Shown piece after piece: positions 39,147 through 41,523 of a DNA stretch of 64,000 nt. Numbering within the stretch: the stretch's first letter is position 1; every line of letters starts with the position of its first letter. The position numbers were made by a program, and so were the translations under genes. Source of the DNA: Alphaproteobacteria bacterium (GTDB taxonomy: Bacteria; Pseudomonadota; Alphaproteobacteria; Micavibrionales; UBA2020); NCBI GenBank assembly GCA_016124645.1, contig WGNE01000002.1, forward strand, positions 23,334 to 87,333, given 5' to 3'. The notes beneath the pieces are model-generated. The model searched no databases, was not told where the DNA came from, and was given only the letters and a program-made list of their open reading frames with translations.

Positions 39147-40007
39147 ATGCCTCTTTTCGGGACAAAGCAGGAAAGGCTGAACAAGCGCCTCTTCAAGGCG
39201 TTGCGCAACGACAAGCTCGAGCGCGTTAAAAAGCTGCTTGCCGAAGGGGCCGATGTCAATGCCTATGACGATTACCGCGACAGCACGCCGCTTTACACCG
39301 CCACGGACTGGTCGTTCCCCGAAGCCGCACAGCTCTTGCTGGAAAAGGGCGCGGATGCGCATTTCGCGAAGAAGGGCAGCGGCTATACGGTGCTGATGAA
39401 GGCCGCCTATATCGGCGATACGCAGCTCGTCGAAGCGCTTCTCGCCAAGGGCGTTGACATCGAGGCGAGGGATGACGACGGGCGCACCGCCCTGCACAAG
39501 GCGGCCAGCAATGGCGATGGCGACATGGTCAAGCTGCTGCTGAAGCACGGCGCGGACCGCAACGCGACCGACAAGCGCATGAACACGCCCGCCGACGTCG
39601 CATCGAAATATTATCCGCGCGTGGCGGAGCTGATCCGCGGCGAGACGCGGCAACCGGTTGAACCGCTGCCCGCCGCCATCGAAGCCGTTCCCGACAAGGG
39701 CGAGGGCTGGCGCCTGACCGCGAAGGACGAGGTGGCGAACGTCTCGCTGAAAAGCGAAATCGGCTATCGCCTGACGGAAGTTTTCAATTTCACCTCCGGC
39801 ACCTACATGCGCATCGCGCAGAACCTTGAAACCGGCGCGGAAAGCCAGTCGCTGAAGTTCTTCGACGAATTCGCGGACGCCGCCGCCATCGAGCGCGCGC
39901 GGGCGGCGCTGGCGCATCTCGGCGGCACGGCAAAAGGCGCCGGCGAAAAGCTCGACAAGCCGTCCATGCCCGCGCCGCGCGCCGCGAACGGGGGCAAGAC
40001 GCCATGA
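39147..40007 (+). CDS. ankyrin repeat protein with conserved unknown C-terminal module (1 of 3)
   Basis: ANK repeats (TPLYTATDWSFPEAAQLLLEKGAD, GRTALHKAASNGDGDMVKLLLKHGAD), then GWRLTAKDEVANVSLKSEIGYRLTEVFNFTSGTYMRIAQNLETGAESQS... Confidence 0.85.
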   Translation: MPLFGTKQERLNKRLFKALRNDKLERVKKLLAEGADVNAYDDYRDSTPLYTATDWSFPEAAQLLLEKGADAHFAKKGSGYTVLMKAAYIGDTQLVEALLAKGVDIEARDDDGRTALHKAASNGDGDMVKLLLKHGADRNATDKRMNTPADVASKYYPRVAELIRGETRQPVEPLPAAIEAVPDKGEGWRLTAKDEVANVSLKSEIGYRLTEVFNFTSGTYMRIAQNLETGAESQSLKFFDEFADAAAIERARAALAHLGGTAKGAGEKLDKPSMPAPRAANGGKTP

Positions 40008-40834
40008 AATTCTTCGGTCCGCCCAGCCAGAAAAAACTCGACAAGCGGATGATGCGCGCCATCGAAAACCGAAATCTTTCCAAGCTGAAGGAAGCGGTGG
40101 AGGCCGGCGCGAACCCGCAAAAGGCGAAGGGCTTTTACGCCACGCCCGTCTATCAGTGCGTGCGTTACGGCTTCAAGGAAGGCCTGGTGTATCTTGTCTC
40201 CAAGGGCGCGAGCCCGGACGGGGACGGCACCGAATACAACATTCCCTTCATGCGCGCCGCGGACTACGGCAACCAGCCGATGATGGAGCTGCTGCTGGAG
40301 CAGGGCGCGAATATCGACATCAAGAACTACGACGGCCGCACCGCGCTGCACCTCGTCGCGAATGACGGCAAGGCGGGGCTGGTGCGCTACCTGCTTGAAA
40401 AGGGCGCCGACGCGACCATCGCGGACAACCAGATGAACACCGCCGCCGACGTCGCGGAAAAGGAATACCCGCGTCTCGCCGACCTCATCCGCGGCAAGGA
40501 TACGGACGCGGAACCCGTCGCCCCCGAGGCCGGCTGGCACCTGACCGCGCCCGAAGAAGTGGCGCATGTCAGCGAGAAGCCCGCCATCGGCTACCGCGTG
40601 ACGGAGGTCTTCAATTTTCGCGCGCAGCTCTATACCCGCGTGAGCCGCAACCTTGAAAACGGCGCCGAAAGCCAGAGCGTCGCTCCCTTTTCCGTCGTGT
40701 CGGAAGGCACGTTGGTGGAAGAGGCGAAGAAAATGCTGACCGCGCTGGGCGGGCGCGATGCGGCGGATACCCGCACGCTGGCCGGCAAGCCGCGCCTGCA
40801 AACCCCGCGGCAGGAAGGGTTCGGCACGCCATGA
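40004..40834 (+). CDS. ankyrin repeat protein with conserved unknown C-terminal module (2 of 3)
   Basis: ATGA overlap with the previous gene. ANK repeats (GRTALHLVANDGKAGLVRYLLEKGAD), then GWHLTAPEEVAHVSEKPAIGYRVTEVFNFRAQLYTRVSRNLENGAESQS... Confidence 0.85.
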   Translation: MKFFGPPSQKKLDKRMMRAIENRNLSKLKEAVEAGANPQKAKGFYATPVYQCVRYGFKEGLVYLVSKGASPDGDGTEYNIPFMRAADYGNQPMMELLLEQGANIDIKNYDGRTALHLVANDGKAGLVRYLLEKGADATIADNQMNTAADVAEKEYPRLADLIRGKDTDAEPVAPEAGWHLTAPEEVAHVSEKPAIGYRVTEVFNFRAQLYTRVSRNLENGAESQSVAPFSVVSEGTLVEEAKKMLTALGGRDAADTRTLAGKPRLQTPRQEGFGTP

Positions 40835-41523
40835 GCAATTACGATTTCGACGAATTCGCGCGCCTCGTCGCCGAAGGCGAGCTCGAGACGGTGAAGCGGC
40901 ATTGCGCCGACCCTGCCGTTGCCGCCATGCGCAACGGGCGCGCCGAAGGCCTCATTCACAAGGCCGCCTATGCCGGGCGCGAGGACGTGGTGGAATTCTT
41001 CATCCAGAAAATGGGCGTGGACATCAACCTGCCCGACAAGGAAGGCTATACCCCGCTGCACGAGGCCGCGCGGGGCGGGAAGGCCGACGTGGTGCGGCTG
41101 CTTTTGAAGCTGGGCGCGAACCCCGACCTGAAGATTTCCAACGGCGACACTCCTCTCGACGCGGGCCGCGGCTTTCCCGCGGTGAAAGCCGCGCTGGCCG
41201 AGGCGGCGAACCGCCCGCGCTGGCTGCGCTCGGGCGAGGCGGAGGTCACCCATGTCGTCACCAAGACCGCCATCGGCTACCGCCTGACGGAAATTTTCAA
41301 TTTCGGGACGCGCAGCTATTTGCTGCTGACGCAGAACCTCGAGACGAAGGCCGAAACCTCGGCCTTGCGCGCCTTTTCGGATATCGCGGACACGACGCTG
41401 GTCCGCCGCGCGGAGGAAGCCTTGCTCGACATGGGCGGCAAGCTGCCGGAGGATTACGCGATGCTCAGGCTCGACAAGCCCAAGCCCGGCCTGAAGTTAT
41501 CCGGCCGCCGCCTTGGGGGCTGA
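40831..41523 (+). CDS. ankyrin repeat protein with conserved unknown C-terminal module (3 of 3)
   Basis: ATGA overlap with the previous gene. ANK repeats (GYTPLHEAARGGKADVVRLLLKLGANPD), then RWLRSGEAEVTHVVTKTAIGYRLTEIFNFGTRSYLLLTQNLETKAETSA... Confidence 0.85.
   Translation: MSNYDFDEFARLVAEGELETVKRHCADPAVAAMRNGRAEGLIHKAAYAGREDVVEFFIQKMGVDINLPDKEGYTPLHEAARGGKADVVRLLLKLGANPDLKISNGDTPLDAGRGFPAVKAALAEAANRPRWLRSGEAEVTHVVTKTAIGYRLTEIFNFGTRSYLLLTQNLETKAETSALRAFSDIADTTLVRRAEEALLDMGGKLPEDYAMLRLDKPKPGLKLSGRRLGG

Follow-up and report, generated by a model that had tools for sequence, protein, structure and literature searches.

In the ANK/PRANC proteins of poxviruses and the Ank effectors of Orientia tsutsugamushi, a C-terminal module of the PRANC/F-box type, a short helical motif, connects the members of each family to the host SCF ubiquitin ligase, and in the eukaryotic ASB proteins the ankyrin (ANK) repeats are the substrate receptor and a small C-terminal SOCS box is the docking element. 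Here we describe three translationally coupled ANK genes in a 64,000-nt stretch of DNA from an alphaproteobacterial metagenome-assembled genome (MAG; contig WGNE01000002.1), which as a whole is called the window and to which all coordinates refer. The three products share a C-terminal module with an ordered predicted fold, found, as far as sampled, only in a Micavibrio-like lineage. The proteins are of a known kind, ANK-repeat adaptors, and their C-terminal domain is undescribed in the libraries searched.

Multi-gene ANK families have been reported, in the available portions of the papers, from poxviruses and O. tsutsugamushi (PMC4353913, PMC4148323, PMC4315096), and like the window proteins they combine variable N-terminal ANK repeats with one conserved C-terminal module. 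Orientia, like the organism that carries the window array, is an alphaproteobacterium. Unlike those families, the window genes lie in a translationally coupled chromosomal array with no eukaryotic host known, and their module is predicted to consist of five β strands and one helix rather than a short helical motif or a helical Skp1-binding domain. The likeness to the ASB proteins is one of logic, by analogy only. Neither PRANC or F-box, which mark such proteins in poxviruses, Orientia and Wolbachia, nor SOCS box was matched in Pfam by the full proteins (E ≤ 1), by the modules alone (E ≤ 10) or by 75 modules of the wider family (E ≤ 10), and the predicted fold differs from that of the SOCS box.

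Architecture of the array

The array and its parts are the following.

39147–40007, plus strand: gene 1, 286 aa, with ANK domain, linker, module and tail (MBI1214270.1; from the open reading frame (ORF), Pfam, an exact-sequence look-up and an AlphaFold2 (AF2) model)
39147–39644, plus strand: gene 1 ANK domain, aa 1–166, five helix pairs, with the AF2 helices between residues 7 and 164
39645–39701, plus strand: gene 1 linker, aa 167–185, flexible as judged from the AF2 predicted local-distance difference test (pLDDT)
39702–39920, plus strand: gene 1 module core, aa 186–258, predicted as five antiparallel β strands followed by one helix; coordinates confirmed by translation
39921–40004, plus strand: gene 1 tail, basic and Pro-rich, GGTAKGAGEKLDKPSMPAPRAANGGKTP
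40004–40834, plus strand: gene 2, 276 aa, ANK at about aa 1–164 (MBI1214271.1)
40529–40747, plus strand: gene 2 module core
40748–40831, plus strand: gene 2 tail
40831–41523, plus strand: gene 3, 230 aa, of the short 'last-position' type, ANK at about aa 1–125 (MBI1214272.1)
41215–41433, plus strand: gene 3 module core
41434–41520, plus strand: gene 3 tail, ending in GRRLGG

An initial annotation, made from the sequence alone, had described three coupled plus-strand ORFs of 286, 276 and 230 aa with ATGA overlaps, and both the coordinates and the junction sequences agree with it: the gene 1/2 and gene 2/3 junctions both read gccATGA, with the start codon overlapping the preceding stop by 4 nt. 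All three products are annotated by NCBI as 'hypothetical protein' in an Alphaproteobacteria MAG (locus tags GC185_00460–00470). The GC content at third codon positions (GC3) of the three genes is 0.82–0.86, similar to that of the neighbouring genes.

The ANK repeats, likewise proposed for each protein at the outset, are confirmed by Pfam, with Ank, Ank_2, Ank_3, Ank_4 and Ank_5 all exceeding the gathering cut-offs in the N-terminal halves of the three proteins and the number of repeats being 3–5. In the full-length AF2 model of the gene 1 product (mean pLDDT 92, predicted template-modelling score (pTM) 0.65), the ANK part is a stacked helix-turn-helix solenoid of five helix pairs with a pLDDT of about 98. 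A Foldseek superposition on designed ankyrin proteins (DARPins) over about 157 columns gives a root-mean-square deviation of 1.3–1.6 Å, 40–44% identity and a TMt of about 0.9, and on this ground the gene 1 ANK part is a near-consensus five-repeat domain. DARPins are neighbours of the N-terminal half only; no Foldseek alignment of the full-length model reaches the C-terminal module, with the longest one listed being 169 columns.

Between the two parts the pLDDT falls, with 10-residue averages of 57 (aa 171–180) and 75 (aa 181–190) and residues 177–182 below 50, and the linker of about 19 residues is disordered in the gene 1 model. Given the pTM of 0.65, the confident ANK part and module and the low-confidence linker, the gene 1 product is predicted to be built of two independent domains.

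The N-termini MPLFGTKQERLNKR, MKFFGPPSQKKLDK and MSNYDFDEFARL show no hydrophobic signal segment, judged by eye and without a predictor; residues 7–20 of the gene 1 product form the first helix of the ANK domain in the AF2 model. N-myristoylation, considered for N-termini of the family that start with MG.F, was rejected, since Gly2 is not conserved and MS, MN, MP and MK occur too; aromatic residues at position 3 are disfavoured in this modification.

The C-terminal module

The three modules are 37–44% identical in pairs and share 28 invariant columns (W, EV, V, K, IGYR, TE, FNF, Y, NLE, AE, F, A, L and GG), which is essentially the shared C-terminal motif written out in the initial annotation. 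The core comprises 73 residues, and the C-terminal unit including the tail about 100. At the DNA level the three cores are only 67–71% identical over 94 nt, too diverged for a recent duplication or gene conversion.

The module had been said to match no named domain, and this held in every library searched. Pfam (2025 copy) returned no match to it from the whole proteins, the modules alone or the 75 family modules, at the thresholds given above; scans of NCBIfam and PADLOC matched only the ANK region; and a profile search of all PDB sequences with the module gave 0 matches at E ≤ 10. Foldseek, run with the module model on PDB and BFVD, gave no significant neighbour, with the best E being 0.03 and the TM about 0.46. 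WGR, AP2 and integrase-type domains, each a β-sheet plus helix, were considered for the module, and no significant match in sequence or structure was obtained.

The AF2 model of the module alone, the prediction proposed in the initial annotation, was built on a 75-sequence module alignment and is confident, with a mean pLDDT of 90 and about 97 in the core. It is a β5-α fold: five antiparallel strands at module residues 7–12, 15–22, 27–34, 39–46 and 52–58, a helix at 66–77 and a tail without regular structure. The same unit is reproduced at aa 186–258 of the full-length gene 1 model. The module, which matches no described family, is thus predicted to be folded, and it is conserved beyond this locus, as described below. 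Being compact, confidently predicted and marked by a sharp motif (W...IGYRLTEIFNF...NL.T.AES...LGG), it is well suited to structural and interaction work.

Across the family, the tails (138 members, about 21 residues) have a mean net charge of +2.0, the core one of −2.1, and the tails are rich in Pro (13%), Ala, Lys (12%) and Gly. Those in the window contain KPxxxxPR or GRRLGG, and a recurring pattern, approximately hydrophobic-[DE]-K-[KP]-x-L-x-x-P-G, was read from the listed tails. The tail pLDDT of 63–79 across both models (63–76 in the full-length gene 1 model) is above that usual for free disorder and suggests that the tail packs on the module domain, which the acidic core and basic tail also fit.

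The GRRLGG ending is common in last-position genes of related arrays (L005_4, L009_3, L010_4 and P0032), and about half of the orthologues deviate from it (GRNLP, GRDFP, HGRLHS, GRRLA). The C-terminus of ubiquitin, LRLRGG, is similar; a ubiquitin-like reading is not claimed, given that only about half of the last-position orthologues carry the ending, and the resemblance may be coincidental.

Family size and genomic distribution

With a hidden Markov model (HMM) of the three modules, an exhaustive search was made of 1.84 billion representatives from clustering at 50% identity. The number of clusters matched was 556 at E ≤ 1e-3 and fell to 245 at E ≤ 1e-10 and to 7 at E ≤ 1e-30, so that the HMM search suggested at the outset uncovers a real family. 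A word-indexed homologue search found only 7 mostly fragmentary matches even with the 75-sequence profile; the exhaustive search was the informative one. The module stands at the extreme C-terminus in all 155 matches listed, with 0–16 residues after it. As to whether it is always fused to ANK, a question also raised by the initial annotation, ANK is present in 141 of 143 full-length representatives, and no other recurrent domain was seen. Candidates for a stand-alone module, among them P0007 and P0056, lie on very short contigs or were not traced to one and may be fragments, and the existence of ANK-less members is not claimed.

When one genome per species was scanned, 20 loci emerged, all of them in MAGs and mostly titled Alphaproteobacteria bacterium or (uncultured) Micavibrio sp., with Bdellovibrionales bacterium and similar names among the rest; the Bdellovibrionales title is explained by the NCBI taxonomy, which places Micavibrio under Bdellovibrionales. 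As far as sampled, the family is restricted to a Micavibrio-like alphaproteobacterial lineage. Viral contigs yielded no relatives, and a phage origin was therefore dropped. One MAG titled 'Patescibacteria group bacterium' holds two loci, L011 (DASPMW010000111.1) and L019 (DASPMW010000131.1); the PAH directly upstream of the L011 array is 81% identical to that of the window, and the bin is probably mislabelled or contaminated.

At 15 of the 20 loci the module genes have the window's PAH and/or FAH genes as neighbours. In contigs that are long enough, the wider order at this main site is a 243-aa protein without assignment, an AlgH-like gene, PAH, sometimes MAAI, the array, FAH, HPPD and MTHFR, with the flanking proteins being 70–85% identical to those of the window. 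The same arrangement occurs in six metagenome contigs and one JGI contig, giving about 22 loci in total. Arrays comprise 2, 3 or 4 genes, and about 6 in the largest (JGI 3300047160, P0006), which has four ANK genes, a 353-aa gene and a module-bearing 107-aa gene. In this contig the 353-aa gene (3031–4092) has no Pfam match, and the 107-aa gene (4101–4424), barely more than a module, follows 8 nt later; the pair represents either one ANK-module gene split by a frameshift or a variant whose head is not ANK. Beyond the window, 4-nt overlaps or near-abutting junctions recur in related arrays. Two other sites carry family members, single genes between acyl-CoA dehydrogenase and rpiB (L015 and L017) and two- or three-gene arrays between ftsH and glmM (L019 and L020), and the complete 3.3-Mb chromosome OZ257145.1 has a four-gene main array plus a single copy elsewhere.

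In Micavibrio aeruginosavorus ARL-13, the portion of the supplementary gene table available lists HPPD, FAH, MAAI and PAH consecutively as GMV_268–271 with nothing between them, and among the genes listed there none is annotated 'ankyrin'. The initial annotation had called the array inserted, and this contiguous cluster without it makes the description reasonable: the array would be an insertion into a once-contiguous operon. It looks like one acquired in a single branch of the group and then inherited vertically.

Clustering resolves orthologues by position. Gene 1 of the window groups with the first genes of L001–L004, L012 and L013, the middle genes form an orthologue group of their own, and gene 3 is closest to the short (about 226 aa) last genes of other arrays (L010_4, L005_4 and L009_3). 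Since each array position is its own orthologue group, the paralogues predate these species and have been individually retained, and the earlier view of diverged paralogues rather than a recent duplication agrees both with this and with the diverged module DNA.

These data bear on whether the products form a hetero-oligomeric scaffold, in which the β-sheet modules would pair or bind each other's tails, hold different ANK arms together and be matched in amount by translational coupling. The ATGA coupling conserved across arrays and the maintenance of distinct positional orthologue groups would suit such an assembly. So would two features of the model: with only one helix, of 12 residues, the five-strand sheet probably needs further cover on one face, and the acidic core, basic tail and tail pLDDT of 63–79 suggest that a peptide-in-groove contact could also be made in trans. 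Against this, array size varies from 2, 3 and 4 to about 6 genes and single-gene loci exist (L015 and L017), with which the fixed multi-subunit protein raised in the initial annotation fits poorly. We regard a scaffold as distinctly unlikely.

Rates of change and the proposed adaptor panel

In comparisons of the window with its orthologues, identity is 44–67% for the module, 28–46% for ANK and 70–85% for the flanking PAH, FAH and HPPD. Rates of nonsynonymous substitution (dN) and their ratios to synonymous ones (dN/dS) were computed among four closer genomes.

ANK: dN 0.05–0.21, dN/dS 0.07–0.29
Module: dN 0.012–0.126, dN/dS 0.02–0.28
PAH, HPPD and FAH: dN 0.007–0.06, dN/dS 0.02–0.12

With all dN/dS values below 0.3, both ANK and module are under purifying selection. 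The array proteins change several-fold faster than the adjacent enzymes, and ANK outpaces the module in the first three gene types.

We propose, tentatively, that the products are modular adaptors combining a variable ANK binding surface with a constant docking module. The three genes would form one transcription unit and yield paralogous two-part adaptors in the cytoplasm. The N-terminal ANK domain would offer a protein-binding surface that differs between paralogues and species and sets target specificity, and a short linker would join it to the constant part, a 73-residue acidic β5-α domain with a basic Pro-rich tail of about 25 residues. Through this part all members would plug into one conserved partner, machine or location, so that the array would amount to a panel of different specificities with one common docking handle. 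It is the fixed layout, the non-redundant paralogues, the co-expression and the unequal rates that lead us to this proposal. The 'panel of adaptors with a common domain' offered in the initial annotation is accordingly our best hypothesis, held at somewhat less than an even chance.

Several points weigh against it. The docking role of the module is read from architecture and by analogy, as no informative structural neighbour was found. Coupling and stable positional orthologues would equally fit subunits of one complex. The main array is strictly kept at one site in about 22 loci, so that a tie to the flanking genes is possible. Finally, the last-position genes (g4) sometimes have a module less constrained than their ANK, and a constant handle with a variable head is therefore not uniform across the family.

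Should the module be a common docking or export handle, it would define a new domain family of hundreds of clusters now annotated as 'hypothetical' or generic ankyrin, and the arrays would be a lineage-specific toolkit in under-studied uncultured alphaproteobacteria related to the predator Micavibrio.

How far, then, could the shared C-terminal unit serve export rather than docking? In this account the proteins are effectors, the C-terminal domain and basic tail are a shared translocation signal, and ANK binds targets after delivery into prey or a eukaryotic host. Bartonella type IV substrates carry a bipartite signal of this sort, a BID domain plus a basic tail, and the positively charged tail is shared by the window family (mean +2.0, n = 138); the BID domain, however, is helical, whereas the module is β-rich and does not match BID in Pfam. 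Export also gains from the lack of an obvious signal peptide (by eye) alongside a conserved extreme C-terminal unit with a net positive tail, from the fast-evolving ANK domains, and from the titles of several related MAGs, which name Micavibrio, a genus of epibiotic predators. Alphaproteobacterial Orientia provides a precedent in its ANK effector panels with a conserved C-terminal part, as far as the available portions of the papers describe them (PMC4315096, PMC4148323).

The closest bacterial matches in NCBIfam are likewise effectors, the Dot/Icm ANK proteins of Legionella and Coxiella (T4SS_Ank models), which also carry C-terminal export information. Yet their equivalogs (AnkH, AnkY, AnkX, AnkG and others) match the window proteins at 9–64 bits against cut-offs of 450–1400 (best 63.5 against 600), far under what assignment takes, and within the ANK part only, so that the type IV effectors suggested in the initial annotation find no positive evidence here. 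No Dot/Icm or other secretion-system gene was seen among the 20 larger window ORFs scanned, and the cultured relative M. aeruginosavorus, whose PAH–FAH cluster lacks the array, is reported to have neither type III nor type IV secretion systems. Type I secretion signals are poor in Pro and Lys, in contrast to the tails described above. Stable housekeeping positions and translational coupling are, besides, unusual for effector genes. Export is in our judgement unlikely.

A bolder version of the same idea can be formulated, in which the β5-α module and basic tail serve as the recognition handle of a so far undescribed route by which Micavibrio-like epibiotic predators deliver or tag proteins, and the ANK panel is passed into attached prey (or a eukaryotic host) to disable variable targets, as a bacterial counterpart of ANK/PRANC built on an unrelated domain. 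It is a speculation that we hold to be improbable. Prey manipulation by epibiotic predators is poorly understood, and a co-expressed, fast-evolving binding panel would be a plausible entry point to it.

The fast evolution of ANK also invites comparison with immunity or defence, where the ANK domains would neutralise toxins or phage proteins in the cytoplasm. The arrays, tandem and made up of genes for fast-evolving binding proteins, resemble those of immunity genes, and matches to the PADLOC models PDC-M72A, Ankyrin and MzaA have E values from 3e-22 to 9e-3. In predatory Bdellovibrio the ANK protein Bd3460 is a self-protection factor that binds and blocks a partner protein (PMC4686830). The PADLOC matches are nevertheless confined to the ANK repeats (for instance, profile positions 234–375 of 392), and the genes for the partners in those systems are not found next to the array. 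The periplasmic Bd3460, made with a signal peptide, carries six ANK repeats without a further C-terminal domain, and its gene is paired with one for an endopeptidase; the window proteins, in contrast, have no obvious signal peptide, an extra module and metabolic neighbours. The genes flanking the array (PAH, MAAI, FAH, HGD and HPPD) include no toxin, nuclease or defence gene, nor do the wider ORFs scanned; viral contigs hold no relatives; and the array sites are stable rather than island-like. An immunity function seems very improbable to us.

The catabolic neighbourhood and expression signals

The array lies within a Phe/Tyr (homogentisate) catabolic cluster, the enzymes of which were named from translations, from matches in related loci and from Pfam labels on a syntenic contig.

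~37279–38200, minus strand: PAH
38211–38903, minus strand: MAAI/GST
38904–39146: divergent intergenic region between MAAI (minus) and gene 1 (plus), 243 nt, lower GC
39082–39110, plus strand: promoter-like site from a consensus scan, TTGACT, 17-nt spacer with ATTATG, TAGTAT, about 37 nt upstream of the gene 1 ATG
41497–41523: convergent overlap of the gene 3 and FAH 3′ ends, 27 nt, from the ORF coordinates
41497–42510, minus strand: FAH (FAA-hydrolase-family ORF)
44119–45402, minus strand: HGD
45407–46495, minus strand: HPPD

The intergenic region has a GC content of 0.57–0.59 against about 0.64 around it, and the scan placed two promoter-like sites on its minus strand and one on its plus strand. 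In 12 related loci the first array gene is preceded by the same arrangement as the plus-strand site, TTGAC-N11-(A/G)TTATGnn-TAAAAT. These sequence signals lead us to infer a sigma-70-type promoter for the array itself, with transcription divergent from that of MAAI–PAH and independent of it. The ATTATG/CATAAT hexamers, considered as a Phe/Tyr operator, look instead like the extended −10 element of an ordinary sigma-70-type promoter, and inspection of the upstream sequences by eye revealed no TyrR-type box. The scan found no terminator-like site on the plus strand after gene 3, so that transcription from the array may run antisense into FAH. The 27-nt overlap with the convergent FAH gene, noted in the initial annotation, stands in the ORF coordinates, and convergent 3′ overlaps of 24–30 nt occur also in L002, L005 and L006 (stop-to-stop ORF coordinates).

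On this basis a regulatory or organising role in the Phe/Tyr pathway is conceivable, exerted either by array proteins that bind the pathway enzymes or by transcription that enters FAH in antisense or convergent direction. The main array sits between PAH/MAAI and FAH/HPPD in about 22 loci of different species, several of these share the 3′ overlap with FAH, and the missing terminator-like site would allow read-through. Position alone carries little weight, however, because the whole neighbourhood is collinear across these genomes. Moreover, PAH, MAAI, FAH and HPPD lie in M. aeruginosavorus without an intervening array, and genome pairs whose ANK domains are 76–78% identical have enzymes 96–99% identical, which is hard to square with ANK binding those enzymes. 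Because copies also occur at two other, unrelated housekeeping sites, the link to catabolism is weak, and a role in the pathway appears to us no more credible than one in immunity. For the adaptor panel, the position in the cluster would reflect an old insertion and vertical inheritance, with no role in aromatic amino-acid catabolism indicated. The array may serve as a caution against reading function from position, given that it lies within a catabolic cluster to which it is probably unrelated.

The content of the cluster is fluid around the array, as the position of HGD differs among loci. HGD (44119–45402) is within the cluster in the window, was not detected between FAH and HPPD in most related loci (compared with L002, L005–L007, L010 and L018), with only a weak match (24% identity) in L012, and is encoded elsewhere in M. 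aeruginosavorus (GMV_1404). Between FAH and HGD (42507–44122, minus strand) are two extra genes, a 366-aa ORF without a Pfam match, judged from its sequence to be a multi-pass membrane protein, and a DUF559-type ORF. DUF559 has this position in L009 and the JGI contig of P0006 too, and both extra genes are missing from most related loci. Clusters of a palindromic, REP-like element (CCCTCTCCCGCNNGCGGGAGAGGG; unit length about 42 nt) lie at 37183–37260, 43487–43585 and 43957–44097, none of which borders the ANK array; when translated, they probably inflate the apparent N-termini of the ORFs 42507–43607 and 43604–44122.

Further from the array, the 243-aa protein of the main-site gene order (35784–36515) has no Pfam or PADLOC match and a 41%-identical paralogue 7 kb off (28570–29325). 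Copies at 35–38% identity are found in related loci (L004, L006, L008, L012 and L028), always just upstream of the AlgH-like gene, and the protein is another lineage-specific family whose function is unassigned. A 992-aa ORF at 53458–56436 (plus strand, GC3 0.83), without a Pfam match, is directly upstream of genes for an Omp85/POTRA (TamA-like) protein and TamB. Two minus-strand genes at 32476–33819 and 33962–35332 are tandem paralogues with the PHB-depolymerase C-terminal domain PF06850 (E 1e-78 and 2e-86, respectively).

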